From an uncultured Elusimicrobia bacterium (GTDB lineage Bacteria; Elusimicrobiota; Elusimicrobia; Elusimicrobiales; UBA9959), in contig CAIQNV010000143.1 in assembly GCA_903873295.1 (NCBI GenBank), positions 15,633 through 79,632 of the forward strand: a stretch of DNA of 64,000 nucleotides, in the 5' to 3' direction. The translations under genes were made by a program, and so were the position numbers. Below, one piece after another: positions 2,888 through 59,003 of this stretch (within the stretch, counting starts at the first letter, position 1; the number at the start of each line of letters is the position of its first letter). The notes beneath the pieces are model-generated. The model worked only from the letters and a program-made list of their open reading frames with translations, did not search any database and was not told the DNA's origin.

Positions 2888-3840
2888 GAATTTGCGTCCT
2901 GCTCCCGGCGCTGTTCCTCTGCTGCGCTCCCGCCGCCCGCGCGCAGGGCGGCGCGAGGGCGGAGAGCGCCGAGATAAAAGAATATTACGACAGAGCTTTC
3001 GCCTACTATGTCTCGGGCGACTACCCCAGGGCCATAGAGCATTGGAACCTGGTGCTGCACGCCGATCCCAAGCAGACCACCGCGCGCGACATGATAGAGG
3101 ACGCCCGCAAAAAAATGGCCAGGGCCGCGGTAACGCTCAAAAGCTCCTTCACCCGCCTGCTGGAAAAGTGCCGCTACGCGGACGCGCTTATCAAACTCGA
3201 GGAGCTGCTGGCCGCCGACCCCACGAACCCGTATTACCTTAAGCTCCAGGGCAAACTGCGCAGGATCTCCGCGCTGGCCCCGGTCAAACCGTCCGCTACA
3301 AAAGCCTGGAACGTCGCCTCGGAGGGCATCACCGCCTGGCTGGACGAGAAAGAGGACCTGCTCTTCGCCTATGACGCGCTGCGCTACGCTTCGGAGCTGG
3401 ACCCCTCGGATAAGGTTTTCGGCAGGCTCACCGCCGCGCTGGAGGAGGAGGCTCCCCATTTGAAGCTTAACGACACCAAGCCGGAAAACTCCGGCGTGCT
3501 GGAGCACAAGAAAGAGATGGCGCTGCACCAGATCTACGATTCGAAGTTTTACCTGGCGGTGAAGGAGCTGGAGGGGGTGCTCAGGCTGGAGCCGGACGAC
3601 GTGACCGCCCTGAAGCGCTCAGGCTCGGCCTATCTGCAGCTTAAGGATTACCCCCAGGCCAGGCTCGCCTGGCAGAAAGCTTTGAAGATCGCCCCCGGCG
3701 ACGAGCAGCTTAAAGAATATCTCGAAGCGCTGGAAAAAGCGGCCCCGGCTGAAGCCGCAAGGCCTAAACACCGGCCCGCCAGACAAAGAAAAAAGAAGAC
3801 CCGAGTTTCCCCCGGCCCTGAGGGCCGACCCGACCTATAA
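2884..3840 (+). CDS. Secreted TPR-repeat protein
   Basis: Signal-peptide-like N-terminus (MRICVLLPALFLCCAPAARAQG). TPR-like units (YYDRAFAYYVSGDYPRAIEHWNLVLHADP; SGSAYLQLKDYPQARLAWQKALKIAP). Basic tail. ATGA overlap with the upstream gene. Confidence 0.7.
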   Translation: MRICVLLPALFLCCAPAARAQGGARAESAEIKEYYDRAFAYYVSGDYPRAIEHWNLVLHADPKQTTARDMIEDARKKMARAAVTLKSSFTRLLEKCRYADALIKLEELLAADPTNPYYLKLQGKLRRISALAPVKPSATKAWNVASEGITAWLDEKEDLLFAYDALRYASELDPSDKVFGRLTAALEEEAPHLKLNDTKPENSGVLEHKKEMALHQIYDSKFYLAVKELEGVLRLEPDDVTALKRSGSAYLQLKDYPQARLAWQKALKIAPGDEQLKEYLEALEKAAPAEAARPKHRPARQRKKKTRVSPGPEGRPDL

Positions 3841-3856
3841 GATCGCCCCGTAAAAA

Positions 3857-3880
3857 CGGCGGCCCGGTTCCGGGCCGCCG
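3857..3880 (-). terminator. Intrinsic terminator hairpin for the minus-strand gene 3914..4579
   Basis: Perfect 11-bp GC stem CGGCGGCCCGG / CCGGGCCGCCG. It is followed by a T5 run on the minus strand (AAAAA at 3852-3856 on the plus strand). Confidence 0.55.
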
Positions 3881-3913
3881 TCAATATCGGACTGCGGATA
3901 ACAATACGGACCG

Positions 3914-4579
3914 TCAGGGCTGGGTTTTGACGACCAGGCTCTGGGCGTCATAGGAAATATCGCGGACCTTCCAGGTGAAGTCCCTGCCGTAGCGCGAAAT
4001 ATCCATGGCCTGCCACTGCGCGTTGTAGCCTATCAGTTCAGGCTTAGCGCCGCGCACGGCCCATTCCAGGCGCTGCGTCGAATTCTCGATATCGAACTGG
4101 GCGCGGTTAAGGAGGGTGCGGGCGTCCATGTCGATATTGCGGGCTATCCCGTTCAGCCCCTGGTCTTTCTGCGCGAGGTTAAGCAGATTTTTGACGTCCA
4201 TTCCCAGCCGCTGCGCGCCGCTGTTATAGCCGTTAAGTTTCCAGGCCATGTTCTGCAGATCGTTCTGGAAGAAGGGGTCGGAGCTGCCGGTCTGCGCTAT
4301 GCGGCGCGCGGTGCTTTCAAGACGATCGAGGTCGGAGCGCAGCCAGGTGGTATCGCTCTCCAATCTCCAGAGATCGTTCTTAACCTGGTTGAACTTGCTG
4401 ACGAGGTCCTGCGGCACCTGAGCCGTCTCTTTTGCCGGCGCGGCGGGAACAGGCACGGCGGCGGCCCCGGCCCCGACGGCGAGATCCGCGGCTTTCATAG
4501 CGGCGAGAGAGGAGAAGTCAGCGGAGAAAACCGGAGACACTAAGGAAACCAGCACGGCCGCAAGCATTGTTTTTTTCAT
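3914..4579 (-). CDS. Secreted hypothetical protein (coiled-coil-like)
   Basis: Signal peptide MKKTMLAAVLVSLVSPVFSA. No motif I recognise. Good GC3 coding bias. Terminator downstream. Confidence 0.6.
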   Translation of the reverse strand: MKKTMLAAVLVSLVSPVFSADFSSLAAMKAADLAVGAGAAAVPVPAAPAKETAQVPQDLVSKFNQVKNDLWRLESDTTWLRSDLDRLESTARRIAQTGSSDPFFQNDLQNMAWKLNGYNSGAQRLGMDVKNLLNLAQKDQGLNGIARNIDMDARTLLNRAQFDIENSTQRLEWAVRGAKPELIGYNAQWQAMDISRYGRDFTWKVRDISYDAQSLVVKTQP

Positions 4580-8362: not shown

Positions 8363-8391
8363 AAAAAAAGACCGGGAAGTCCCGGTTTTTT
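8363..8391. terminator. Bidirectional intrinsic terminator
   Basis: AAAAAAA-GACCGGG-aagt-CCCGGT-TTTTTT immediately after the stop of 7219..8346. Confidence 0.7.
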
Positions 8392-8414
8392 CAATGAATA
8401 GAACTCAACGCTTG

Positions 8415-8576
8415 CCGCGGCTGCCAAGGGGACCGGAACGCAAAACACGGGGTCGGCCACACCGTGACCGCCCCTCCTCACTCGGCCTCGTCGCTTACGC
8501 AAGCCTCGGGCGGGGAACTGTCGCTTCGCTCCATCCCGTGAGGGTTTTGCTAACCCGGTCCCCTTGGCAGACGCGG
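8415..8576 (+). repeat. Copy A of a conserved structured intergenic element (core GGAACGCAAAAC...CGGCCACACCGTG...CGCTTACGCAAGCCTCGG...GGTTTTGCTAACC)
   Basis: Perfect 16-bp outer arms CTGCCAAGGGGACCGG (8421-8436) / CCGGTCCCCTTGGCAG (8555-8570). Shares core blocks with copies at 32358-32491, 32541-32677 and 43547-43676. Confidence 0.8.
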
Positions 8577-8581
8577 GGCTC

Positions 8582-9811
8582 TTATAGTTTAACGATCTTC
8601 CGGTACTCCGACTGCAGGCCGAAGAACTGGGCGAACACGCTGCCGATGTCGGCGAGGCCGGGCAGCAGCCCGGTCTTAAGCCCGCCGAGCTTCCTGTCAT
8701 AACCCTTCCTGTAAGCGAGAAAAGGCAGCGGCTCGTTGTTGTGATAGCCGTAATCCTCGCGGTGCAGCATGCCGTGGTCCGCGGTTATGCCCAGCAGGTC
8801 GCCCTTGGCCAGGTTCTTTTCGATAAGCGGCAGCGTCCTGTCTATCTCCTCAAGCGATCTCAGCGCCCCCTCCACGTCGCGCGTGTGGCCGTAGACGCTG
8901 TCCGTATCCACCAGGTTGGAGAAGATGAAGGTGCCCCTGGGCCGGTAAACCGAATGCGCAGCCTGGAGCGCGTTGATGGTGCCCTGTATGCAGAAAGGGT
9001 TGGTATCCTTCTTCTTGGGATGCACAAAGCGCAGCCCCAGCGACGGGTCGATGAAAATTTCCCTGTTGAGCTTTACCTTGGCGTGGTAGGCGGTGTTCAC
9101 CAGATCGCTGGTCTTGCCCACGGCCACCGTCCAGACGGCGCTGTCGTGCAGTATGTCCACCAGGGTCTTCTGCCCTATGGGCAGCACGGCGTCGTGGCGG
9201 TTAGAGGTGCGGATGATCTCGCCCTGCGCGTTCTTTATGTAGGAGCGGGCTATCGCGCGGGTTATCGGGAGCTTCAGCTCCATGGCCAGCGCGAAGGCGA
9301 TATCGGCTATCTTGTGCTGCTCGGGCACCGGGATCACGGCCTCGTTCATGGCCAGCTGGATCAGCGGGTCGCACTTGCTGGCGTAGGCGATGGGCCTGCC
9401 GGTCCGCTCGTGCTCCGCGGCGTTCAGCTCTATGGCTTCCATGCCGCCCGCCATCTTGTTGAAGAAGGTTTTGCGGCCAATGCGCTTTTCGAGCTCGGAA
9501 AGGTATTCCCGGCTGAACCCGTCGTTAAAAAGGCCGTAGGTGCGGTGGTCTATCACGCCCATCATCTCGCGGTGCCCGACCAGGCTGTCCGCCGTGGCGG
9601 AAACCTGGCTGACCCGCGCGGCGTAAGCCTTGCCGGAAGCTTTGAAAGCCAGGCGCTCCTTGAATTCAGGCAGCACTATTTCGCCCAGTCCCAGCCTGCA
9701 CAGGTTCGGCAATTTAACTCTCCCCGGATATTTTGAGAGCAGGTATTCCAGCGTGGAAAGCCCCACGGCGTCCAGCACCAGCAGCAGCGCGGTTTTCTGC
9801 GTATGTTTCAT
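8582..9811 (-). CDS. deoB: Phosphopentomutase-like alkaline-phosphatase-superfamily metalloenzyme
   Basis: NLVDTDSVYGHTRDVEGALRSLEEIDRTLP and ITADHG resemble DeoB motifs (NLVDFD..YGHR.DV.GYA.AL..FD.RLP; TADHG). Size is ~409 aa. Confidence 0.6.
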   Translation of the reverse strand: MKHTQKTALLLVLDAVGLSTLEYLLSKYPGRVKLPNLCRLGLGEIVLPEFKERLAFKASGKAYAARVSQVSATADSLVGHREMMGVIDHRTYGLFNDGFSREYLSELEKRIGRKTFFNKMAGGMEAIELNAAEHERTGRPIAYASKCDPLIQLAMNEAVIPVPEQHKIADIAFALAMELKLPITRAIARSYIKNAQGEIIRTSNRHDAVLPIGQKTLVDILHDSAVWTVAVGKTSDLVNTAYHAKVKLNREIFIDPSLGLRFVHPKKKDTNPFCIQGTINALQAAHSVYRPRGTFIFSNLVDTDSVYGHTRDVEGALRSLEEIDRTLPLIEKNLAKGDLLGITADHGMLHREDYGYHNNEPLPFLAYRKGYDRKLGGLKTGLLPGLADIGSVFAQFFGLQSEYRKIVKL

Positions 9812-31893: not shown

Positions 31894-31975
31894 AACTCTC
31901 CCTGAAATATCCGCTCTGTATATTATATATCCGCGTCTTTACGGATTTATTGCGCAGTTTTGGTAAAATAAGAGT

Positions 31976-32308
31976 ATGACCGAAAGGCGAATAGCCGTCA
32001 GCGAGGAGTGCGTTGAGCCGGAACTTCTAAGCTCCGGCGGAGACGCCTTTAAGCCGCGCGGGCAAGAAGCCCGCAGCCGGCTTCCCCCCGAAAAGCCCGG
32101 CCTGCTGACGCGCCTCAAAATGCTGCTGGCCGGCGGCCTGGCCCTTCTCGGTGCGGGACTCTTCATAGCCGGGGCACTCCTCACCTCAACGGTAATAGGG
32201 GCCATAATAGGCATACCGCTCATGCTGGCCGGCGCGCTGTTCTTCTTCCTGCTTCTCAAGCTCCTCGCCTCCGGCTCCCAGAACGCCTTCATCTTCCGCC
32301 GTTTTTAA
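31976..32308 (+). CDS. Small two-TM membrane protein (hypothetical)
   Basis: 110 aa with two hydrophobic helices (LLAGGLALLGAGLFIAGALL; IIGIPLMLAGALFFFLLL). No recognised family. Confidence 0.45.
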   Translation: MTERRIAVSEECVEPELLSSGGDAFKPRGQEARSRLPPEKPGLLTRLKMLLAGGLALLGAGLFIAGALLTSTVIGAIIGIPLMLAGALFFFLLLKLLASGSQNAFIFRRF

Positions 32309-32357
32309 TATCTTCCCGTTCGCTGACAAACATAAAAAGAGCCGCGAGATGCGAAGT

Positions 32358-32491
32358 CGGGGCCTACCACAGGCGCCAGAACGCAAAATCGGCGTCTCGC
32401 ACACCGTGCTCGCGCCTGCCGCTCTCGGCCTCGGCGCTGCGCAAGCCTCGGCCTCCGAGGGGCTTTTGCTAACCTGGCGCCTGTGGTCTCC
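32358..32491 (+). repeat. Copy B of the conserved structured intergenic element
   Basis: Outer arms ACCACAGGCGCCAG (32366-32379) / CTGGCGCCTGTGGT (32474-32487) are perfectly complementary, with a GGGG/CCCC extension. Core blocks AGAACGCAAAAT, GCACACCGTGC, CGCTGCGCAAGCCTCGG and GCTTTTGCTAACC. Confidence 0.8.
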
Positions 32492-32540
32492 CCTCCGTAC
32501 AGCTTTACAGGCGAGACATATTTCGTTAAACCGAGTAACC

Positions 32541-32677
32541 GGGCGGAGACCGTGCGGGCCGGGTTAGCAAAACCGTCGTTGAGCCCGACGCTTGCGTAAG
32601 CGCGGAGGGCGAATACCGAGTGAGGCCACGGTGTGGCCGAACGCGTTTTGCGTTCCGGCCCGTACGGTAGGCCGCCC
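32541..32677 (-). repeat. Copy C of the conserved structured intergenic element (inverted relative to copy B)
   Basis: Reverse complement reads ACCGTACGGGCC-GGAACGCAAAAC-...CGGCCACACCGTGGCC...GCGCTTACGCAAGCGTCGG...GGTTTTGCTAACC-CGGCCCGCACGGT. 14-bp outer arms at 32549-32562 / 32655-32668 with one G-T pair. Confidence 0.8.
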
Positions 32678-32703
32678 GCAGACCTTTCGCAGTAGCGTGC
32701 TTC

Positions 32704-35700
32704 CTACTTCACGTTCAGGGTGATGCCTGACGAATGGGCGGCGAACTCGGGGGCGTACATCGACTGGATCACCGCCGCCCCGGCCTTGAAAGTGCCCGGC
32801 GTCGTCGGGCGCAGGCGGTACTTCAGCACATACTCGCCGTGCGGCAGCCACTCCATGAAGAAGTTGGTCAGCGAATCCCGCGGCTCCTCGTAGCGCCCCA
32901 GCTGGTCCCAGTGCCAGCCGCTGGTCAGCGTCTCCGCCTCGAAACCCGCGGCCTTGGGATCCTTCAGGTGCACATACTCGAACTGGCTGCGCGTGTTCAC
33001 CGTCAGGTGCACCTCTACCTGGTCGCCCACCGCCACCGTAGCGCCGTCGGCAAGAGGCTTCAGAATATAATCCTCCCCCTCTTTTACACGCAGGAAATAT
33101 TTCCTGGAAACATTCATCATCCCCGCCGGAGATTCTTCCGCGGTCTTATCCGTGGTATAGATCCCGGTAAAAGCCGCGAAGGCCAGCCCCGGGCCCTTCT
33201 TCCCGATCTCGGGCGCCAGGTCCTTGCTGGTGATCTCCGACCCGTATTTTGACCAGCGCAGCGGCTTCGCCACCCAGTCGAAAGGCTGCAGCTCGAAGGC
33301 CTCCGCCGTATCCCCCCATTTAAGTCCGTAGCTCTCCGGCTTGTCCAGAGCGCCCTTACCCTTCATCACGTCCAGCAGCGAATAGATAGCCGCCGCCGAG
33401 GCCTTTGTGGATTTCCACTCATTGGCCTTGCGGTTGAAAAGCAGCCAGCGCACCATGCCCGCGATCTTGGGATCCTTCGGACGCACCGCCAGCAGCGTCC
33501 TGAGGAGGAAAGCGTGCTTCTCCACCGTGTCGTTATACCAGAGCCAGGAGATCTTCTCCGGCGTCCAGTAAACTCCCGCGATATCGTCGGAGCGCGCCCC
33601 GTCCATCGCCCGGGCCAGATAGCTTTCCGCCTTCGCCCTCTCGCCCAGCCTCAGATAGACATAGGCGGCGTAAGCCTTGCCGAAGGCCGTCATCGCATCA
33701 GAATGCTTGTCGGCGTAATCCGCCCAGACCTTGGCGTAGGTCAGCGCGGTTTTGCTCTCCGGCCAGGACGCCGGGAACGAGGTGACGACATAGGCCGCGT
33801 AAAGGATAAGCGAAGTCTGGTCCTCCTCAGGCTTCATATGCGCCGGGATCTCGCCCAGCACATAAGCCAGCGCTTTCCTCGCCGTGTCCTGCGGGATGTC
33901 CACCCCGTAGCGCGAGGCTTCGCCAAGGCCCTCCAGCACATAAAGCGTCATGTAGAGGTTAGGATGGCCGCCCGGGAACCAGGGGAAGGATCCGTCGGAA
34001 GATTGATAAGCCTTCAGCTTGGCCAAGGCGTCCTCCTTTTCCCCCGCCACCAGCTTCGGGTCCAGCATGTCCACTACAGGAAGAGAGGAGCGGCGGCCTT
34101 TAGACTCCTGCTCCCAGGGGGTCTCCATCAGACTCATCAGCCGCACCGGGTTGTCGCGCTCCCACTCCGGCGTGAGCGTGGTCCGCTTCGGGATCTTCGC
34201 CACGGAGGCGCGCAGCTCCGGGTATTTGTTATAGAAGCTGTTGGTGATGGCCAGCGGCACATACCGGTTAAGCAGCTGCTCGGTGCACTCATACGGGTAA
34301 TGCACCAGGAAAGGCAGGCTGTTAAGCACCGTCAGGATCAGCTGCGGCTGGATCTCCAGGTGGAGCGCTTCCACCTCCCGCGTTGGGTCCGCGGACTCAA
34401 GCTCGGGCAGCCTGAAGGTTTTGGAAGCATTCCCGTCGAGAGAAGCTACGCCGGAGGCGATCAGCCGCTCCCTGGAGGGCAGCACCGGCAGGTCGTTCTC
34501 CTGCGCGTCGGCGAGCGCCCCCGCGCGGGCCACGGCGCGCACCTTGTAGGCAGCGACGCCCCGCGGCGCTTCAATTTCCCAATATACAGAAACCGTGCCT
34601 TTGGGCTTAACGGTAAAAGGCCGCGACAGCTCTTTAAGGCTGAACTTTTCGTGGGCGGCCGCGCCGTCCAGCGTTACGGACAGCGCCACTTCACCCGAAA
34701 GCTCCACGGCGGTATCGTTGGTAATTACTGCGGTCAGCCGGGACCTGTCGCCCTCGCGGAAGAACCTCGGAATATCCAGCCGCACCATCAGGTCCTTTTT
34801 GGTAACGGTCTCGGCGCTGAAAGAGCCGCGCCGCGCGCTTCGGGTGAGCAGGTAGGAACTTATCTTCCACGACGTAAGCCGCTCGGGTATTTTGAAAGAG
34901 AACTTCCCTTCGCCTTTGAAGACCTTAAGCTGCGGATTATAGTAAGCCGTCTCGGAGAAATCCGTGCGCGTTTTAACTTCGGGCTCGGCGCTGGAAGCAG
35001 CCTTCCCCGGGGCCATTTCGGACTTATCTTTCCTGCTTGTATCTCTTATCATGGACTGTGAAGGCGCGGCGGCAGGGGCGCTCATCTCGGCCATATTTGA
35101 CCCGCCGGCCAGGCTCGCGTCAGCCATCCCCAGGCTTTCGCCTTCGAAAGCCAGGCCTTTGGCAAAGCCCCTGGCCGCGCCCATGAAGCCCCCCCGGCCG
35201 TAAAGCCTTGAGGCGCCGACGCGCAGCGAGGCCAGACGCTCCTCGGCGACGGACAGCCTGAAGGCGTCCATCATGCGCTGTATGAGCCCGGTGCGTATGG
35301 GCAGCCCCACCGCGTAGGGGGTGAACAGCGAGCCCCAACCTTCCCCTGAGGAGCGCCTCGCCGGATAAAGAGCGTCGCCCCAGAACCCGGCATCGCGGCC
35401 GTAATATTCCAGGGACCTGTCGAATATTTTTACCAGCGCCTCGCCGGAGGCGGGCCTGCCGGCGGAATCCTTCGCCCTCAGCAGCCAGGAAGCCGTCTGT
35501 CCCGGCGCCAGCGCTTTGTCATAGTCGAGCGAAAGCGAAATGGTCTTATCTTTAAGCGGAACCTCCGCCCCGTCCATGGCGGAATAAACCTTAAAATCTC
35601 CGGCCCCGAGCCAGCGCAGGGCGAAACCGCCGCGATGCGCGCCTCCCACCTTCAGACTTAAGATGGAAAGGCCGCCGTCCTGCAGGGTCTCGCGGGAAAG

Positions 35701-38685
35701 CATAAAGCTCCCGGCCAGGACTTCTGCGTATTTAACCCCTTTCAGCGCCGAGGCCCCTATAAGGGCCCTGGCCGTTTCCCCCGCCTGATAGGAAGCGTGC
35801 TCGAACAGCGCCACCGGCGGCAGTTTAAGGGCCGCGTTCGCGCGGCTGTCGGTTGAAGCGGAAATTATTATAAGCTGCGAACCGCTCTCGCCACCCCAGG
35901 GGTCGGCGGCTTTAAGTTTAAGGCGGTAAGCCCCGGGCGCGAGCCTCTTGAGATCTATCTTAACCGGACCCTGCTTCAGTAATTGCGCCTTTCCTTTCCC
36001 GGCCAGCGGCCCGTCAGGAACCTGGCTGAACGCCTGTTCTAGCGAGGGGTTGGTTCTGAACTGCCCCCATTCCCCGCTGCCCGCGTCCGCTGCCGGAGCT
36101 TTCTCAAGCCTGTAAAGCTCGTACGAGGCCGCCCCTTCCTGTTGTACGTCGTTAAGGTCCAGCAGCCGGGCGTCGACCAGGGCCGGCTTTTCCGGAGTAA
36201 AGAAGCCGGCTTCAGGCTTTATGTCGAATAAATAAGCTTTAGCTCCGGCCCTGTACGAGCGCGAATCCGCGATCGTGCGCCCGCCGGCGTCGCGCGCCTC
36301 CGCTTCGACCTGGTAGGAGGAAGGATACGCCCCGAAGGCTTCGCTTTCGGGCTGCGGAACGAAGCTGAAGGTGAAGCGACCGTCGTCGCCGGTCTTGATT
36401 TCGCCCGAAGTTACTTCGGAGGAGCCCGAGGCTCCATAGAACCAGGCCCATTGCCAACAGTACCAGGGGATATAGCGGGAGCGGGTAACGCGGTACTTGA
36501 CCGCGGCCCCGGGCACCGGGGAGCCGAAGTAGTATTTGACTTCGCCGGCAATTTCCGCTTTTTCGCCGTAGCGGTAGGGCTTTGCGGCCTCGCCCAATTT
36601 AACCTCGAACTCCGGCCGCTTATATTCCTCTACGCTGAAGCCGGCCGACCCGCTGAAATCATGGCCGTACTCGTTCAACTGCGCGGTGACGGAATACCCG
36701 CCCAGCAGGCGCCCCTCCGGGACCTTGAAAGAGCCGGCCGCGCTGCCCAGGCCGGTGAAAGGGAGTATCTTTGTATAAACCTCCTGCCAGTTGGGGTCCC
36801 GCGCGGTGACGGTCAGCCTGCTTTTTCCGTCGTAGACCCGGTAGCCGCGCGGCTCGCGCAGCAGGGCGGTGGCCTTGAACTTAACTTCCTGCCCCGGCCT
36901 GTAGACCGGGCGGTCCGTCTCCACAAACACGCTGACCGGCTGCGGCACCTGCAGCCCGGCCGAGGCCTGGGAGTTCCAGTAGGCGTAGGCCCCGTCATGG
37001 CTGAGCAGCGGATCGAGAGAAAAATATTCGTTCGAAGGATAGGTAACGGTAAAAGGCAGGCTGAAAAGCGCCGCGCCGTCCGCTCCGGTCTCGAAGCCGG
37101 CCCTTTCCCAGGAGCCGGAATGCGACCGGTGATAAAAAGCGTCTATCCCGGCGCCGGCCAGCGGCCTGCCGGTGAGCGCGTTGACGGCGTAGAGGCGGAA
37201 CATGTCGGAGGAAACCTGGCGGGAAGGAGCCGCAGGGTCGTAGAGAAAATCCTCCGGATCGCCTTTTACTCCGGAAGTTCCCAACAGGAAGATATCGGTT
37301 ATGTTCAGCGTCACGGCTTTCAGCAGCGAGGAGCCGTCCTCGAAGCCGCTGTCGCCGGAGGCGATGACGACATAAAGACCCTTTTTGAAGGCCGGAGAGG
37401 AAACCTCCTGGTCCTTGTACTGGTACGGCGCCGGATAATCTACCTTCTGCCGCCATTCAAGGTCCGCGCTTTTACCGAGGAAGCCGCGCACGGCCTCCTG
37501 CTGCAGGTACTTCACGGCGCCCCAACCCTGCCCGCCGTTCCGGCCGAAAGCGGACAGCTCCTGCGGCGTAGTTCTATAGGCCCTGAAATAGATCACCGGC
37601 AGATTGCGGGCGTTAACCCTGAGAGTTTTAGCGCCGGGCGGCGGAGCGAACGAGCCCGAAAGGTCCAGGCCGGGCATTTCTATTTCCGCGCGTATTTTCG
37701 CGCAAAGAGAGGCCGGCTTCGACTTAGAGGCTTCGCCTTCCGCCTTTTTACACAGCTCCACCGCGGCCTTGAAATCAGGCGCCTCCTGCTCCAGGGCCGC
37801 CGCGCGGTAGAACGCCCAGCTCCGCCCGAGCGCCGATTTAAAAGAAGCGGCCCACCCGCCAAGCGTCCCCAGAGCCGCCGCGCGCAGCTTAGCGCGGTCG
37901 TAGGCGGCCACTTTCTCGCCGTGCTCGAAGGGGATCAGCAGGCGCTGCAGCCGCCAGTACTCGCGGGCGAAATCGGCGGAAGGGGAACTCATACCGGCCG
38001 CGTCCTCGAAGATGGCGGCCGCTTTAAGCGCCGGCGGCGCCGAGGCGCTGTAATCGGCCCGGAAGACGGGCTCCGCAAACCCCTCCGCCGGCGGCGGCGC
38101 GCCGGTATTATCGGCTTCCTCCAGCAGATACCCCGTCCAGCGCAGCACTGCGAAGTCCCAGAGCGTGGGCGTATAGGCCAGCTCGGCGCCTTTCAGGTCA
38201 ATGAAATAAGCCTGGCCTTCGAGCCGGCATTTCAGCAGCTCCCCCCTCAGGTCCCAAAGCGAATTATAATCGGCCTCTATCAGGCGGCGCCACTGGGCGG
38301 AGGTCAGCTTGGTGACATCCTTGACCCCTTCCTGTATGTCGGCGGGCAGCGAGTAGCCGTACTGCTGCAGTAACTGGCGGCCAGTCTCGGCCCGGAGCAG
38401 CAGCAGCCTGCCCTGCCACAGCGGGTCCGGCGGCAGCTTCATATCGGCCAGGCGCTGGGCCGCCTCCCCGTAGCGGAAGAGGAGAGCCTCGCATTCCGCG
38501 GCACGGTAGAGCGCTTTCAGGCCGTCTTCCCCCGGGGCGGCGGCCGCCGTGGAATAAATTACCAGCGCTTCCTGATAAAGGTTCTTTGAGAACAGCTGGT
38601 CGGCCTTTTGCAGGTCCGCGCCCCCGTACGCAAAGCACGGAAAAAGGAGTATGGCTATGATAGTTTTCATTTTGTCCCCCGACAT
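32704..38685 (-). CDS. Bacterial alpha-2-macroglobulin family protein with intact thioester motif
   Basis: 1993 aa. Signal peptide after an alternative start at 38670 (MKTIIAILLFPCFAYG). Thioester CxEQ in HYPYECTEQLLNRY. Long MG-domain-like beta-rich body. TPR-like N-terminal ~350 aa. Confidence 0.9.
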   Translation of the reverse strand: MSGDKMKTIIAILLFPCFAYGGADLQKADQLFSKNLYQEALVIYSTAAAAPGEDGLKALYRAAECEALLFRYGEAAQRLADMKLPPDPLWQGRLLLLRAETGRQLLQQYGYSLPADIQEGVKDVTKLTSAQWRRLIEADYNSLWDLRGELLKCRLEGQAYFIDLKGAELAYTPTLWDFAVLRWTGYLLEEADNTGAPPPAEGFAEPVFRADYSASAPPALKAAAIFEDAAGMSSPSADFAREYWRLQRLLIPFEHGEKVAAYDRAKLRAAALGTLGGWAASFKSALGRSWAFYRAAALEQEAPDFKAAVELCKKAEGEASKSKPASLCAKIRAEIEMPGLDLSGSFAPPPGAKTLRVNARNLPVIYFRAYRTTPQELSAFGRNGGQGWGAVKYLQQEAVRGFLGKSADLEWRQKVDYPAPYQYKDQEVSSPAFKKGLYVVIASGDSGFEDGSSLLKAVTLNITDIFLLGTSGVKGDPEDFLYDPAAPSRQVSSDMFRLYAVNALTGRPLAGAGIDAFYHRSHSGSWERAGFETGADGAALFSLPFTVTYPSNEYFSLDPLLSHDGAYAYWNSQASAGLQVPQPVSVFVETDRPVYRPGQEVKFKATALLREPRGYRVYDGKSRLTVTARDPNWQEVYTKILPFTGLGSAAGSFKVPEGRLLGGYSVTAQLNEYGHDFSGSAGFSVEEYKRPEFEVKLGEAAKPYRYGEKAEIAGEVKYYFGSPVPGAAVKYRVTRSRYIPWYCWQWAWFYGASGSSEVTSGEIKTGDDGRFTFSFVPQPESEAFGAYPSSYQVEAEARDAGGRTIADSRSYRAGAKAYLFDIKPEAGFFTPEKPALVDARLLDLNDVQQEGAASYELYRLEKAPAADAGSGEWGQFRTNPSLEQAFSQVPDGPLAGKGKAQLLKQGPVKIDLKRLAPGAYRLKLKAADPWGGESGSQLIIISASTDSRANAALKLPPVALFEHASYQAGETARALIGASALKGVKYAEVLAGSFMLSRETLQDGGLSILSLKVGGAHRGGFALRWLGAGDFKVYSAMDGAEVPLKDKTISLSLDYDKALAPGQTASWLLRAKDSAGRPASGEALVKIFDRSLEYYGRDAGFWGDALYPARRSSGEGWGSLFTPYAVGLPIRTGLIQRMMDAFRLSVAEERLASLRVGASRLYGRGGFMGAARGFAKGLAFEGESLGMADASLAGGSNMAEMSAPAAAPSQSMIRDTSRKDKSEMAPGKAASSAEPEVKTRTDFSETAYYNPQLKVFKGEGKFSFKIPERLTSWKISSYLLTRSARRGSFSAETVTKKDLMVRLDIPRFFREGDRSRLTAVITNDTAVELSGEVALSVTLDGAAAHEKFSLKELSRPFTVKPKGTVSVYWEIEAPRGVAAYKVRAVARAGALADAQENDLPVLPSRERLIASGVASLDGNASKTFRLPELESADPTREVEALHLEIQPQLILTVLNSLPFLVHYPYECTEQLLNRYVPLAITNSFYNKYPELRASVAKIPKRTTLTPEWERDNPVRLMSLMETPWEQESKGRRSSLPVVDMLDPKLVAGEKEDALAKLKAYQSSDGSFPWFPGGHPNLYMTLYVLEGLGEASRYGVDIPQDTARKALAYVLGEIPAHMKPEEDQTSLILYAAYVVTSFPASWPESKTALTYAKVWADYADKHSDAMTAFGKAYAAYVYLRLGERAKAESYLARAMDGARSDDIAGVYWTPEKISWLWYNDTVEKHAFLLRTLLAVRPKDPKIAGMVRWLLFNRKANEWKSTKASAAAIYSLLDVMKGKGALDKPESYGLKWGDTAEAFELQPFDWVAKPLRWSKYGSEITSKDLAPEIGKKGPGLAFAAFTGIYTTDKTAEESPAGMMNVSRKYFLRVKEGEDYILKPLADGATVAVGDQVEVHLTVNTRSQFEYVHLKDPKAAGFEAETLTSGWHWDQLGRYEEPRDSLTNFFMEWLPHGEYVLKYRLRPTTPGTFKAGAAVIQSMYAPEFAAHSSGITLNVK

Positions 38686-43532: not shown

Positions 43533-43546
43533 CTGGTTTAAGCTCG

Positions 43547-43676
43547 GGGTTTGCCGACGTGACCGGAACGCAAAACGCGGTCGGCCACACCGTGGCCTCC
43601 CTCATCTCTCGGCCTCGGCGCTATGCAAGCCTCGGCCTCAAGAAGGTTTTGCTAACCCGGTCACCTCGTCAAACCC
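43547..43676 (+). repeat. Copy D of the conserved structured intergenic element
   Basis: TGACCGG (43560-43566) / CCGGTCA (43657-43663), with additional GACG/CGTC and GGGTTT/AAACCC outer pairs. Core GGAACGCAAAAC, CGGCCACACCGTGGCC, CGCTATGCAAGCCTCGG and GGTTTTGCTAACC. Confidence 0.8.
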
Positions 43677-43699
43677 GGTCAACAAGAGATAGTAAGGAT

Positions 43700-56313: not shown

Positions 56314-57054
56314 TTAAGGGAGGAGAGGTGAATCGATCGGCAGGCCGTAGGCGGCCGCCAGGCGCTCCGGGGAGAGCATTTCAGACTCCGCGCCGAAAGA
56401 ATACGCGCCGCCCCCGTTCAGGAGAAGCGCCTTATTGCAGCCCAGCCGCGCCAGCGCCGGCTCGTGCAGCACCGCCGCCACCGCCAGCCCCCGCCGGCCC
56501 AGCCGCGCCAGCAGCGCCATGATCTCAGCCTTATATTTAAGGTCCAGGTGCGAGGTAGGCTCGTCCAGCAGCAGCAGGCCGGCTTCCTGCGCCAGCGCCT
56601 GAGCTATAAAGACAAGCTGCCGCTCGCCGGTTGAAAGCGTGTTTATGGACCGCTCTGCCAGCGCCGTTATCCCGGTCTCCTCCATGGCCAGGCCGGCCGC
56701 CGCTCCGTCCTCGGCGCGATAACCGCGCCAGAACCCCGCCCGGGCGGTGCGCCCCAGCAGGACCGTCTCCCTGACCGAAAAATCGTAAGGGGTGGAAGTT
56801 TCGCTGGCCACATAGGCCGCCAGGCGCGCCAGCCGCCCAGGCTCGATCAATGCTGCCTCTTTACCCCCGAGCTTGACGGAGCCGGAAGACGCCTTCATAA
56901 AGCCCGTAAGCAGTTTCAGAAGCGTGGATTTGCCCGAGCCGTTGGGCCCGAGCACGCACATAAAATCCCCGGAGCGCAGCTCGAACGACAAGCCCTGTAT
57001 GAGCGGTCGCGGCCCGTAGGAAAAAGTAAGCCCGGTGACCTTCAGGACCGGCAT
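56314..57054 (-). CDS. ABC transporter ATP-binding protein (FecE/BtuD type)
   Basis: Walker A GPNGSGKST, signature LSTGERQ, Walker B LLLLDEPT. Start taken at ATG 57054 (MPVLKV), overlapping the upstream TGA by 1 nt. Confidence 0.85.
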   Translation of the reverse strand: MPVLKVTGLTFSYGPRPLIQGLSFELRSGDFMCVLGPNGSGKSTLLKLLTGFMKASSGSVKLGGKEAALIEPGRLARLAAYVASETSTPYDFSVRETVLLGRTARAGFWRGYRAEDGAAAGLAMEETGITALAERSINTLSTGERQLVFIAQALAQEAGLLLLDEPTSHLDLKYKAEIMALLARLGRRGLAVAAVLHEPALARLGCNKALLLNGGGAYSFGAESEMLSPERLAAAYGLPIDSPLLP

Positions 57055-57992
57055 CAGTTCTTCCCCCTTGAGCTTTTCCACAGCAGCCACATGAAGAAAG
57101 GCGCGCCGGCCAGCGCCATCACTACCCCGGCCGGAATTTCCGAAGGAGAAAAGAAAGAGCGCCCCGCCGCGTCCGCGGCGGTAAGCAGGGCCGCCCCGCC
57201 CAGCGCCGCCGCCGGCACCAGGACGCGCGCGGACGGCCCGGTCATGCGCCTTATTATATGCGGCGTCATCAGCCCCACAAAGCCTATTGTGCCGCCGATG
57301 GCCACAGCCGCCGAGGTGGCGGCGCAGGCCAGAGCAAAAAACAAAATACGCTCGCGCTCCGGGTCTACGCCCAGATGATACGCGTTTTCCGAGCCCAGCG
57401 CCATGGCGTCGAGGGCGCGCCAGCGCGCCATGGCCACCGCCCCGGCCGCCAGTATGATCAGCGACGAGGCGATAAGCACTCCGGGCTGGACCGAATACAG
57501 GCCTCCCAGCACAAAATAGAAAAGAGAAAAAGACCGCTCGCGCGCCGAGGTGAGGGTAAGCATTACCAGCGCGGAGAGGAAGGCGCTGACGGCCACGCCG
57601 GCCAGCACCAGAGCGGCGTCGGACAGCCGCCCGGCCAGCCGCGCCAGCCAGTAAGAGAGGAAAGTGGCGCCGAAAGCCCCCGCAAAAACGGCCAGGAAGA
57701 ACACGGGCGAAGTCCTTTCGATGCCGGCTAAAAAACAGAAGACCGCGGCGGCGGTGGCGCCGGACGAGGTGCCGAGTATATAGGGGTCGCTGAGCGGATT
57801 CTTAAGCACGCCCTGAAAAAGAGCGCCGGCAAGGCCCAGGCCCGCGCCGACGGCCAGTGCGGCCAAAGTGCGGGGAAGCCGCAGGTTAATGATGATGTCC
57901 GCGCTCGACCAGCCGGCGGGGCCGGCCGCGAGGGAGAACAGGCAGGCGGCCGCGAGCGCCGCGAAAAATATCAGGGATTTATTTCTTGTCAT
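57054..57992 (-). CDS. FecCD/BtuC-family ABC permease
   Basis: ~9-10 TM segments and a typical FecCD C-terminal region (IPAGVVMALAGAPFF). Confidence 0.85.
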   Translation of the reverse strand: MTRNKSLIFFAALAAACLFSLAAGPAGWSSADIIINLRLPRTLAALAVGAGLGLAGALFQGVLKNPLSDPYILGTSSGATAAAVFCFLAGIERTSPVFFLAVFAGAFGATFLSYWLARLAGRLSDAALVLAGVAVSAFLSALVMLTLTSARERSFSLFYFVLGGLYSVQPGVLIASSLIILAAGAVAMARWRALDAMALGSENAYHLGVDPERERILFFALACAATSAAVAIGGTIGFVGLMTPHIIRRMTGPSARVLVPAAALGGAALLTAADAAGRSFFSPSEIPAGVVMALAGAPFFMWLLWKSSRGKN

Positions 57993-58806
57993 CGAGATAC
58001 GCGGCCAGTTTTCTGATCTCGCTGAAAAGCCTGGGCCCGGGGCGGGAAAAAGCGTCGCGGTTCAGCCCGGTTATAATGCGCCCGGCCTTTACCGCTGCCA
58101 GGTCCTTAGCCATCGGGCGCGCAAGGAATTCTTCCTTTGTCCCCGAAAGCAGTATGACAGCTTCGGGGTCCAGCAGCAGCACCTCTTCCCAGGAGGCCTG
58201 GAAATAGCCTCTTTTTTCTCCCCCGAAAATATTCCTGCCTCCGGCCAGCCGCACCGCGTCGGAAAGAAAAGACCGCCCCCCGGCGGTCCAGCCGCCGCTA
58301 TCCGCCTCCAGATAAACCTTCAGCGGCTTTTCAGGAAGCTTTTCGGGCATAAGGGCTGAAAGCCTCTTGATGAGATTCTCTCCGGCCCGTTTGACTCCCA
58401 GTTCGGCGGCTATTAGGCGCACCGCCCCTAAAATTTCGTCCGCGCTTTTTTCTTCCGGCAGAGAAACCACTTTAACGCCAAGCGAGGAAAGCTGCTTCGA
58501 GGAGGAGGAATCGGCCCAGGCCCCGGCGAATACGATGTCGGGCTTAAGCGAATAGATCTTCTCTATATTCGGGCGCAGATAATCACCGGTCTTTTCTATT
58601 TTCGCGGCAGCGGGAGGCCAGTTGCAAAAATTAGAGACCCCGACAAGGTCTTTTCCCGCGCCCAGCTCGAAAATTATCTCGGTATAGGAAGGCATCAGGG
58701 AAACGACGCGCCGGGCCTGTAAAGGGAGAGCCGCGGCAATGATCAAAAAAGGCAGCGCGGCGAGAACCGGCGCTATTTTATTATCTTTTAAATTTATGCG
58801 TCCCAT
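57979..58806 (-). CDS. Periplasmic binding protein (BtuF/class-III cluster A type)
   Basis: RVVSLMPSYTEIIFELGAGKDLVGVS and KPDIVFA are typical of BtuF/FhuD-like binding proteins. Immediately downstream of a cobalamin riboswitch. Confidence 0.8.
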   Translation of the reverse strand: MGRINLKDNKIAPVLAALPFLIIAAALPLQARRVVSLMPSYTEIIFELGAGKDLVGVSNFCNWPPAAAKIEKTGDYLRPNIEKIYSLKPDIVFAGAWADSSSSKQLSSLGVKVVSLPEEKSADEILGAVRLIAAELGVKRAGENLIKRLSALMPEKLPEKPLKVYLEADSGGWTAGGRSFLSDAVRLAGGRNIFGGEKRGYFQASWEEVLLLDPEAVILLSGTKEEFLARPMAKDLAAVKAGRIITGLNRDAFSRPGPRLFSEIRKLAAYLDDKK

Positions 58807-58839: not shown

Positions 58840-58960
58840 TCTCTCCCCCTCGGAATGCCGGACGCTTCCGTCCGTGCTGGCAGTAGACCGGGCTTAGCCC
58901 TGAGGCATCACCGTTGCGGGGCAGCCGGGGAATCGCACCCCGTTCCTTCTGCGACAACAA
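58840..58960 (-). promoter_or_regulatory. Cobalamin (AdoCbl) riboswitch
   Basis: Minus strand reads AAGGAACGGGGTGCGATTCCCCGGCTGCCCCGCAACGGTGATGCC...GGGCTAAGCCCGGTCTACTGCCAGC. This matches the conserved GGUG.GAUUCC / CUGCCCCGCAACGGU core and a B12-box-like AGCCCGGUCUACUGCC. A TATAAT sits just upstream on the minus strand (58962-58967), and a weak hairpin plus U-run precedes the ATG at 58806. Confidence 0.8.
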
Positions 58961-59003
58961 AATTATAATACTAAATCCGCAACGATACCTGTAGAGTTAA
59001 TGC

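Follow-up and report, generated by a model that had tools for sequence, protein, structure and literature searches.

The ERIC (IRU) elements of the Enterobacteria and the Correia elements of Neisseria are long MITEs in the form of imperfect palindromes, 100-155 bp in length, which lie in transcribed intergenic regions. RAYTs are Y1 HUH enzymes encoded by a single-copy gene that is usually flanked by repeats. The REP/BIME/REPIN repeats form doublets, persist vertically, lack target duplications and are served in trans by a single-copy RAYT (PMC3116915, PMC3337134, bioRxiv 10.1101/2021.07.10.451892, PMC6006769). REPs are imperfect palindromes of 21-65 nt that carry a GTAG/GTGG tetranucleotide within 0-2 nt of the hairpin foot, on its 5' side (PMC6006769). 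A templated mode of correction has also been described for quasipalindromes (PMC7202029).

The window analysed here, a stretch of 64 kb, carries four copies of an element that belongs to an abundant repeat family in one bacterial order, the Elusimicrobiales, for which we found no earlier Rfam entry or paper. These elements are probably a new, lineage-specific family of interspersed, non-coding DNA palindromes akin to REP/BIME/REPIN or ERIC, unusually large and branched, and maintained at the DNA level. Their evolution is unusual for REP-like elements, combining arms that are locus-specific yet always complementary with core homogenisation, module shuffling, inversions and fixed doublets.

Four copies in the window

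A first-pass annotation had proposed four copies of an intergenic element, termed A to D. All four are there, as seen from the sequence and from a search with a covariance model of 111 family members, which returned exactly four matches in the window (107-136 bits). The ordered core blocks that had been described, GAACGCAAAA, CACACCGTG, CGC..GCAAGC and TTTTGCTAAC, are common to all of them. The features are listed by position.

8363-8391, classical bidirectional intrinsic terminator (A-tract, GACCGGGA/TCCCGGT hairpin, T-tract), adjoining copy A, outside the element
8413-8578, plus strand, copy A, covariance-model match of 107 bits
8421-8436 and 8555-8570, plus strand, outer-stem arms of copy A
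8455-8469, plus strand, H1 of copy A
8492-8504, plus strand, H2 tip of copy A
8512-8537, plus strand, nested mini-hairpin module GGGGAACTGTCGCTTCGCTCCATCCC within copy A, 3' of H2
32342-32355, plus strand, B/C doublet, outer inverted repeat, left half (CCGCGAGATGCGAA)
32356-32497, plus strand, copy B, long core subtype, covariance-model match of 127 bits, with the consensus fold
32359-32362 and 32490-32493, plus strand, P0 of copy B (GGGG/CCCC)
32366-32379 and 32474-32487, plus strand, P1 of copy B (5' arm/3' arm)
32380-32382 and 32470-32473, plus strand, loops of copy B (AAC/TAAC)
32383-32388 and 32464-32469, plus strand, P2 of copy B (GCAAAA/TTTTGC)
32397-32411, plus strand, H1 of copy B
32435-32446, plus strand, H2 tip of copy B
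32498-32538, AT-rich spacer of 41 nt separating the tail-to-tail copies B and C
32539-32678, minus strand, copy C, short core subtype with GGCGG..CCTACC-type arms, covariance-model match of 130.9 bits
32590-32602, minus strand, H2 tip of copy C
32624-32638, minus strand, H1 of copy C
32679-32692, minus strand, B/C doublet, outer inverted repeat, degenerate right half (CTGCGAAAGGTCTG on the minus strand)
43543-43680, plus strand, copy D, short core subtype, covariance-model match of 135.8 bits
43583-43597, plus strand, H1 of copy D
43619-43630, plus strand, H2 tip of copy D

Copy A sits between the stop codon of a minus-strand gene (8582) and the bidirectional terminator. Copy D is the only hairpin in the gap between a radical-SAM gene (stop 43532) and a convergent RNase D gene (stop 43700). 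The left-half flank of the B/C doublet recurs at doublets in loci L070, L095 and L105, and its partner, GCATCTCGCGG, is present at L041 and L105. The possibility that the elements are intrinsic terminators was rejected: such terminators have a GC-rich hairpin that runs straight into a U-tract, no T-run follows the stem here on either side, and separate classical terminators adjoin copies.

Distribution of the family

The element was found more than 130 times, in Elusimicrobia genomes that number at least 29 and carry several copies each; the first 80 loci already represent at least 29 assemblies. In a one-genome-per-species collection, 106 of the 112 pattern matches fell in Elusimicrobia or Elusimicrobiales MAGs. 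The covariance model gave 125 matches in 758 kb, and the sequence sampled contains roughly one copy every 16-30 kb. All 120 pattern matches in viral contigs were chance matches as judged by nhmmer. The first-pass annotation could not place the element in any RNA family, and Rfam agrees: the only match in the window at the gathering threshold was to a cobalamin riboswitch elsewhere, and positions 32300-32720 gave none even at E<=10. A literature search for an Elusimicrobia palindromic repeat returned nothing relevant.

Copies occur as singlets or as fixed tail-to-tail doublets within a further inverted repeat. Adjacent doublets are tail-to-tail in 18 of 18 cases, with spacers of 7-65 nt in the 15 doublets extracted. 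Other copies carry the mini-module of copy A at three separate junction positions, and it is found apart from the element as well.

Fold, covariation and pairing chemistry

The unit is branched and about 140 bp long. An outer stem of 20-22 bp leads through an asymmetric AAC/TAAC loop to a 6-bp A-tract helix (GCAAAA/TTTTGC) and then to a three-way junction, which bears two hairpins whose tips (CAC-ACC-GTG and GCTTACGCAAGC) are almost invariant. H1 has the ACC tip in 107 of 116 copies, and the H2 tip has a variant, GCTTGCGTAAGC, that is exactly reverse-complementary to the common form. Conservation along the element is highest in the junction region. Loops and relative module orientation are strongly conserved on one strand, which could reflect an RNA or protein-binding function.

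Each window copy folds far better than its shuffles on either strand, with z-scores of -4.4 to -7.2. Over the 111 family members, helices are 93.4% paired (74.8% in shuffles) and contain 656 double-change cells (203 in shuffles), and sliding the 3' partners by 1-3 columns reduces pairing to 27-44%. One-sided changes make up about 1% of P1 cells. The conserved single-strand fold with compensatory change that had been claimed from four copies is thus borne out across the family. That GCAAAA/TTTTGC is invariant in the 111 copies is due in part to the pattern used to collect them; among variants recovered with the model, this helix carries compensated changes (GAAAAAC/GTTTTTC, CCAAAAC/GTTTTGG). 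A 3' hairpin drawn earlier as CCTCGG/CCGAGG in copy B and CGTCG/CGACG in copy C is in neither subtype consensus; the family supports instead a helix, P3, that closes H2.

Strong covariation, a three-way junction and near-invariant loops would suit a functional structured RNA, that is, transcribed copies acting as a 3'-UTR stabiliser or insulator or as a protein-binding RNA, with selection on the RNA at each locus. We consider this reading unlikely, in part from the pairing chemistry. Curated RNA families generally show clear wobble enrichment. Here, P1 contains 24 G·T (G·U) against 52 A·C, the folds of the whole subtype consensuses contain 30 against 52 and 38 against 52, and G·U was judged no commoner than A·C on either strand, the G·U/A·C ratio of the reverse strand being 2:1 at best. 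This points to complementarity of the Watson-Crick, DNA type, and Watson-Crick pairs account almost wholly for the pairing that is kept. Assignment of an RNA strand from wobble pairs was abandoned: A·C outnumbers G·T 2:1 on the GAACGC strand, a bias that is too slight and varies too much with lineage.

Gene context and orientation

All copies had been described as lying between convergent genes, which is correct for the window and not for the family. With genes called by GC3, co-directional gaps contain 40 sense and 25 antisense copies, convergent gaps 31 copies and divergent gaps 5, and the background comprises 220 tandem, 92 convergent and 65 divergent gaps. These calls were used because a context count from longest open reading frames is unreliable in high-GC DNA, owing to antisense frames. 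Several features of the placement favour the RNA reading. Copies avoid promoter gaps (5/101, compared with 65/377 background gaps), they lie a median of 16-50 nt past stop codons, and the element at site A is upstream of the terminator. The balance of sense and antisense copies is weakly in favour of sense (40:25), and a tail-to-tail doublet between convergent genes, as in B/C, presents its sense copy first to each gene.

Other observations speak against that reading. In co-directional gaps 38% of copies are antisense, orientation is flipped in 8 of 23 orthologous species pairs, and the flanks of copies contain no conserved promoter or terminator. The strand-specific 3'-UTR RNA element proposed in the first-pass annotation is therefore not sustained, given these orientations, the wobble counts, orthologous sites that are empty in relatives (below), shuffled helix variants, nested hairpin modules and a fixed doublet architecture. 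Mixed orientation, insertion polymorphism, module shuffling, nesting and doublets are properties of interspersed palindromic DNA repeats.

Filled, empty and flipped orthologous sites

Site A is filled in the window and in L113, L114, L118 and L120/121. It is empty in L115-L117, whose proteins share 91-92% amino-acid identity, and in more distant relatives; there, the same terminator is present alone. Relatives of site D were found through RNase D homologues, the exact RNase D protein of the window having no record. This site is filled in the window, L282 and L283, in three different states of arm, core and orientation, and is empty in L284 and L285. The empty sites at both loci contain neither arms nor core, and they also miss some flanking spacer, which leaves the insertion boundaries undefined at the base level. 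At a locus, arms and core come and go jointly. Such close relatives without copies speak further against an RNA under selection at each locus.

Where a copy persists, its orthologous arms are kept while the core may be swapped for another subtype and the element or a hairpin tip inverted. L113 matches copy A in its arms and in its rare core subtype but lies in inverted orientation, and the asymmetric arm mismatches flip along with the core, which indicates that the whole element was inverted. At site D, the proximal arm (positions 5-12) changed along with the core.

Mosaic evolution of arms and cores

The arms follow a family consensus, GCC-NNN-GGGRCCGG, in which positions 10-11 alone have about zero information, and the 3' arm has the counterpart CCGGYCCC-NNN-GKC. 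Two asymmetric mismatches are fixed, A·C at position 11 and C·T at position 13. Each copy does have its own self-complementary arms, as first noted. They are not unrelated: they share this consensus, and those of B and C are part of a recurrent doublet scaffold. Arms at orthologous loci are often recognisable and differ by compensated changes, which the RNA reading would also accommodate; core subtypes swapped at a fixed locus fit that reading poorly. Core identity has a median of 0.80 in orthologous pairs and 0.80 in random pairs. Core pairs at least 95% identical are more frequent within genomes (8.1%) than between genomes (1.2%), and their arms are only 53-61% identical; thus core similarity, and not arm similarity, is higher within a genome than between genomes. 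Identical arms occur with different core subtypes (L018- and L043-, L085 and L109) and at unrelated loci. Variants of H1, H2 and the arms are found in nearly every combination.

Such mosaics invite readings in which the core moves independently. It is conceivable, if quite unlikely, that the conserved core is a cassette recognised, in folded single-stranded form, by a structure-specific enzyme not yet described, which would insert, invert and exchange cores between hairpin scaffolds, or build a new complementary pair of arms at each insertion. If true, this would constitute a mode of DNA mobility distinct from terminal-repeat transposons and from REP/RAYT elements. In a narrower version, which we regard as very unlikely, the core alone is mobile or exchangeable, and a structure- or site-specific recombinase inverts and swaps cores between long-lived hairpin scaffolds at the junctions CCGG-AAC-GCAAAAC and GTTTTGC-TAAC-CCGG, in inverted orientation, in the manner of folded attC sites or recombinase-mediated cassette exchange. 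The different subtypes in identical arms, the near-identical cores within unrelated arms of one genome, the inverted cores at orthologous sites and the conservation of the junction region agree with this narrower version, and a conserved structure with variable stems and fixed mismatches recalls the extrahelical bases of attC. It is opposed by end-points of exchange that vary, as in the proximal arm at site D, and by the inversion of the whole element at site A. Arms-only scaffolds are also absent: neither a motif search nor a general hairpin scan of 1.14 Mb found any, and simple hairpins with stems of at least 13 bp in that sequence are nearly all A/T-tract terminators, none of them arm-like. 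A recombinase gene was found in neither the window nor the loci, and the R'/R'' motifs and cassette arrays of attC are missing.

An ordinary MITE core inserted in pre-existing palindromes (terminators or REP-like hairpins), the arms being target sequence, is scarcely tenable: arms that outlast cores at their locus, the subterminal GCAAAAC/GTTTTGC inverted repeat, which resembles a terminal inverted repeat, and placement where terminators occur would fit, but this pre-existing target-hairpin model is largely refuted by the lack of arms-only hairpins and by the two loci with armless empty sites, and it is further contradicted by the arm consensus, the identical arms at unrelated loci and arms that are not followed by a T-tract.

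Termini and the search for a mobilising enzyme

The ends of the elements vary in sequence, without a conserved terminal motif. No GTAG/GTGG-type tetranucleotide is present at the hairpin foot, information outside the stem is about 0 bits, and there is no conserved cleavage or guide motif beyond the stem. Target-site duplications of at least 4 bp were not detected, flanking direct repeats being in marginal excess over the control (14 compared with 9.7 for 4-mers; 5/111 for 6-mers). The earlier view that this is not an ordinary MITE holds on both counts, termini and duplication. A co-occurring transposase or RAYT, which had been suggested as a check, was sought in the window and the loci: no transposase, integrase or RAYT was detected in the window, where a Pfam sweep gave housekeeping genes only, and no transposase-like cluster recurs in 106 loci of 8 kb. 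The search for an autonomous version or an adjacent enzyme yielded only clusters of histidine kinases, housekeeping proteins (such as an ABC transporter) and antisense-frame artefacts. At L072, two copies 2 kb apart lie either side of a phosphoglycerate mutase gene.

Discussion

We propose that palindromic DNA repeats of this kind would be inserted rarely and in trans. The substrate would probably be folded single-stranded DNA and the enzyme the product of a gene elsewhere in the genome, with an HUH/RAYT-like or other structure-specific enzyme as the obvious candidate. Cores may later be homogenised or exchanged among copies by gene conversion or replication template switching, with the conserved blocks as the presumed homology, and complementarity of the arms could be kept by intrastrand (quasipalindrome) templated correction, by hairpin selection, or by both. 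When read through by RNA polymerase, an element would form a very stable hairpin in either orientation and may secondarily protect or delimit transcripts. Several observations count against a REP-like reading: no candidate enzyme was found in the window or recurrently in the 8-kb loci, the hairpin-foot tetranucleotide and conserved termini are missing, the decoupling of arms from cores is not expected of a simple REPIN/MITE master-copy burst, and the sense excess and the sense-first doublets between convergent genes point the other way.

The family is a caution for RNA discovery, in that textbook-looking multi-helix covariation can come from a family of DNA palindromes; telling the two apart needs orientation, wobble content and insertion polymorphism. 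With it, a phylum that is little studied and largely uncultivated gains an abundant repeat family, which offers a natural system for the study of ectopic gene conversion, of palindrome correction by templating and possibly of a new single-strand DNA enzyme that acts in trans. In practice, the elements will break assemblies and mislead terminator and sRNA predictors, and they can be used as strain markers in Elusimicrobiales MAGs.

Comparison with known systems

Like cis-regulatory and small RNAs in Rfam, the element has a multi-helix fold, covariation and conserved loops; it differs from them in its orientation independent of transcription, lack of wobble enrichment, insertion polymorphism and module shuffling. 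Classical MITEs have conserved terminal inverted repeats and a target-site duplication, neither of which is seen here, and they share presence/absence polymorphism at orthologous sites with the element (sites A and D). As in integron attC sites, structure is kept with little sequence conservation in the stem, short conserved motifs lie at the stem junction, fixed asymmetric mismatches mark the strand, the terminal structure is variable and recognition is likely to be of folded single-stranded DNA. In contrast to attC, copies are scattered among housekeeping genes rather than arrayed as cassettes beside an integrase, which the window lacks; compared with the R''/R' motifs (RYYYAAC/GTTRRRY), TGCTAAC misfits RYYYAAC, and AAC faces TAAC, unpaired, in a loop.

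With ERIC and Correia elements the family shares imperfect palindromes in both orientations, size variants that arise by internal insertions at defined places and a long RNA hairpin upon transcription. Those elements are conserved from end to end, termini included, and have a TA duplication on their flanks, whereas here the termini vary and a duplication is not seen; no sequence resemblance was noted. The closest likeness in behaviour is to the REP/BIME/REPIN repeats of Enterobacteria and Pseudomonas, which are extragenic, high-copy, lineage-specific palindromes past stop codons (PMC3116915, PMC3337134, PMC6006769). A known REP/MITE family, a match to which had been named at the outset as a refuting outcome, is not matched by identity; the elements nevertheless behave like members of that class. 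Both occur as singlets and inverted doublets of fixed relative orientation with mosaic unit types, lack target-site duplication and persist vertically for long periods at each locus. In REP/BIME/REPIN systems an adjacent transposase is lacking because the enzyme (RAYT/TnpA-REP) acts in trans. REPs are simple or bulged hairpins of 21-65 nt with a GTAG/GTGG guide at the foot, while the Elusimicrobiales unit is branched, of about 140 bp, with a three-way junction and without that guide. The arrangement of conservation is the reverse of that in REPs: here the outer stem is variable and locus-specific, and the interior is conserved.

A multicopy structured repeat in Elusimicrobia

The window carries four copies of a repeat unit of about 140 bp, in which outer arms (P1) enclose a core formed by a helix (P2) and a three-way junction with hairpins H1 and H2:

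8413-8578, plus strand, copy A
32356-32497, plus strand, copy B, tail-to-tail with C
32539-32678, minus strand, copy C
43543-43680, plus strand, copy D

A four-way alignment bore out the first-pass annotation, which had described four segments with shared core blocks (GAACGCAAAA, CACACCGTG, CGC..GCAAGC and TTTTGCTAACC) and self-complementary flanks particular to each copy. Both strands of copies A-D fold far above dinucleotide shuffles (z-scores -4.4 to -7.2). The element had been put down as unlike any familiar RNA family, and indeed Rfam gave no match to it, whether the window was searched at gathering thresholds or 32300-32720 at E<=10. The window itself is unremarkable chromosomal DNA of about 60% G+C, whose genes are all housekeeping. 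A very large alpha-2-macroglobulin-like bacterial protein (at least 1993 aa; MG2, A2M and bMG10 domains; 32704-38685, minus strand) directly adjoins the B/C doublet. Elsewhere, a cobalamin riboswitch (Rfam RF00174, 38.2 bits; 58862-58995, minus strand) lies directly upstream of an operon probably serving B12 or corrinoid uptake:

57979-58806, minus strand, periplasmic binding protein
57054-57992, minus strand, FecCD permease
56314-57090, minus strand, ABC ATPase

The exact pattern GAACGCAAAA-N70-100-TTTTGCTAAC, searched against one genome per prokaryotic species, occurred at at least 112 loci; among the 112 matches listed, 106 fell in Elusimicrobia/Elusimicrobiales MAGs and 6 were chance matches in other phyla. 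The pattern loci yielded 116 copies, 111 of which were used to build a covariance model. This model recovered exactly the four described copies in the window and 125 copies in 100 loci (758 kb in total), with more in later loci. It also caught variant types that keep the two inner hairpins alone, with different closing helices and arms. Type II repeats were seen at L009 748-891, L050 145-285, L095 2457-2597 and L105 1205-1371, and type III at L056 2506-2628, L059 3146-3275, L076 2192-2312 and L101 2508-2646 (L-numbers denote compared loci from other genomes and metagenomes). Both have only the hairpins GGCCACACCGTGGCC and ..CGCTTACGCAAGC.. in common with the main repeat, and share neither its closing helices nor its arms (type II, ..GGGTATGGGCCCG..CGAACCCATACCC..; type III, GGGGGTATGCCTTCTCCGGGTACGCTC..GAGGCCCCTGCGAAGGCATACCCCC). 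Thus, the superfamily is wider than the search pattern. Viral contigs contained no copies, and a literature search found no publication describing the element.

Fold and covariation

The long (~95-nt core) and short (~91-nt core) subtypes, folded separately, gave agreeing consensus folds:

P1, outermost, about 21 bp
Internal loop AAC/UAAC, between P1 and P2
P2, GCAAAA/UUUUGC
Three-way junction, inside P2, bearing H1 and P3-H2
H1, covarying lower stem with a CAC-ACC-GUG tip
P3-H2, tip GCUUACGCAAGC

A 3' hairpin proposed earlier is missing from the consensus of either subtype. In the 111-copy alignment, 93.4% of helix cells are paired versus 74.8% in shuffles, double-change cells number 656 versus 203, and shifting the 3' partners by 1-3 columns reduces pairing to 27-44%. 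Flank pairing extends about 20 positions from the core, beyond which it falls to background (25%); Watson-Crick pairs make up 84-100% at positions 1-12, and position 10 is occupied by GC (33), CG (32), AT (26) and TA (16). The arms, first taken to be unrelated, are not arbitrary and follow the pattern GCC-NNN-GGGRCCGG; asymmetric mismatches recur in them, A·C (position 11) and C·T (position 13).

Doublets, nested modules and mosaic evolution

Adjacent copies are arranged tail-to-tail in 18 of 18 pairs, B/C included. The 15 doublets examined in sequence mostly combine a GTCGGGG-armed with a GGCGG-armed unit, either of which may have any core subtype, and several are enclosed by an outer inverted repeat, CCGCGAGATGC / GCATCTCGCGG. 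Small hairpin modules of 25-35 nt occur inside copies at three junction positions and are of three kinds (..TGTCGCTTCGCTCC..; ..GCAGTGGCC-N-GGCCAC..; ..AGAAAGTGGC-N-GCCAC...). They are found in copy A (8512-8537) and at L008, L016, L034, L040, L043, L049, L084, L088, L091, L099, L101, L105 and L120/121, and outside copies at L018, L032 and L081; one kind also lies in the outer flank of doublets. The modules look like a nested repeat family in their own right, smaller than the first.

Arms of orthologous copies are often clearly related, with differences compensated on both sides (L003/L086, L086/L106, L085/L109, L015/L020). Orthologous cores are no closer than random pairs (median identity 0.80 vs 0.80), and long and short subtypes substitute for each other at orthologous sites. 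Unrelated loci of one genome carry different cores in identical arms, core pairs at least 95% identical have arms merely 53-61% identical, and nearly all combinations of H1, H2 and arm variants exist. Cores are homogenised within genomes: 8.1% of within-genome pairs are at least 95% identical, compared to 1.2% between genomes, and the nearest-neighbour core is from the same genome in 17 of 61 cases (4.1 expected). An inverted hairpin tip was also seen in H2, where the variant GCTTGCGTAAGC exactly matches the reverse complement of the usual tip. At L003 784-943, an arm with 19 nt from the start of one core subtype directly precedes an entire copy of a different subtype, whose arm is nearly identical. 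This partial duplication looks like a trace left by unequal exchange or template switching involving two copies.

Orientation relative to genes

The first-pass annotation had suggested a 3'-UTR element or a protein-binding sRNA. Gene contexts were taken from GC3-based calls, which recover the real genes of the window; the antisense frame is often the longest ORF in this high-GC DNA, and naive ORF lists therefore misplace contexts. At 31976-32308 (plus strand), both GC at third codon positions and a clear hydrophobic helix argue for a 110-aa ORF rather than the longer one at 31939-32292 (minus strand). Of the 101 copies so placed, 40 lie sense and 25 antisense in tandem gaps, 31 in convergent gaps and 5 in divergent ones; among background gaps, tandem ones number 220, convergent ones 92 and divergent ones 65. 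The repeat avoids promoter gaps, and its orientation bias is weak. The copy is flipped in 8 of 23 orthologous locus pairs from different species (flanks 76-95% identical). Wobble is not favoured in P1 (G·T 24 vs A·C 52, one-sided changes making up ~1% of cells) or across the whole fold (G·U vs A·C, 30 vs 52 and 38 vs 52), and no conserved promoter, T-tract or motif outside the stem was found in the flanks. Mixed orientation, flipped orthologous copies, no wobble preference and no flank motifs speak against a strand-specific UTR RNA.

Classical bidirectional terminators of the intrinsic type, each with an A-tract, a GC hairpin and a T-tract, lie between convergent genes at 8363-8391 and at many loci of the lineage. 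At L066, one is placed mid-spacer of a doublet, so that transcription of either convergent gene passes through a sense copy of its own before the shared terminator.

Filled and empty sites

Site A, the position of copy A downstream of the gene at 8582-9811, was compared in 49 orthologous metagenome loci. It is occupied in the window, L113, L114 and L118 and, disrupted, in L120/121. Core and arms are both missing from L115-L117, at 91-92% protein identity, and from every more distant locus; there the stop codon is followed by ~10 nt and the same bidirectional terminator. Copy A and its L113 counterpart have common arms and the same rare core subtype but lie in opposite orientations with respect to the genes. 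The asymmetric arm mismatches track core orientation in L113 and L118, so the whole element flips. In L120/L121 (~3800-3950), an unrelated palindromic repeat (ccaaggtccggccagggggaggtccc ... gggacctccccctggttggaccgg) truncates the copy; another in the lineage consists of GGGGTCAGACC-type tandem/inverted units (L133 2405-2459; L131 1944-1996). Site D, the position of copy D, compared via RNase D homologues, is occupied in the window, L282 and L283 and empty in L284 and L285. L282 has the orientation of the window with a different core subtype, a retained distal arm and a proximal arm altered with compensation; in L283 the copy points the other way and its arms differ.

A simple-hairpin scan of 1.14 Mb matched almost exclusively A/T-tract terminators and no arms-only hairpin. 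Since empty sites are armless and arms-only hairpins absent from the scan, arms come and go together with the core, and arms as pre-existing targets are largely ruled out. Neither target-site duplications of at least 4 bp nor a transposase or recombinase near copies or within the window were found.

Proposed mechanism and comparison with known repeats

We propose that a trans-acting enzyme would work on folded single-stranded DNA, that cores may be homogenised and swapped via gene conversion or template switching at conserved blocks, and that arm complementarity could be kept by quasipalindrome-type templated correction (PMC7202029), hairpin selection, or both. Whichever way round it lies, a copy that is transcribed must give a very stable hairpin, and protection of mRNA 3' ends is therefore a possible secondary role. 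A more novel mechanism, a structure-specific core cassette system, seems unlikely to us; it stays in consideration because unique yet complementary new arm pairs accompany shared cores and because of the fixed tail-to-tail rule.

The REP/BIME/REPIN and ERIC class is marked by extragenic, lineage-specific, multicopy and mosaic repeats, present as singlets and fixed inverted doublets, with insertion polymorphism, orientation indifference, exclusively Watson-Crick pairing, no target duplication and no adjacent enzyme (PMC3116915, PMC3337134, PMC6006769, bioRxiv 10.1101/2021.07.10.451892). The Elusimicrobial repeat is likewise extragenic, lineage-specific, multicopy, mosaic, insertion-polymorphic and orientation-indifferent, forms doublets of fixed inverted orientation, pairs almost purely by Watson-Crick rules, and has neither target duplication nor adjacent enzyme. 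However, at 140 bp, branched and without a GTAG/GTGG foot motif, it falls outside the formal REP definition, and it also fails that of a classical MITE; we therefore do not place it in a named family. On balance, we favour its belonging with the REP/BIME/REPIN and ERIC kind, outside any named family.
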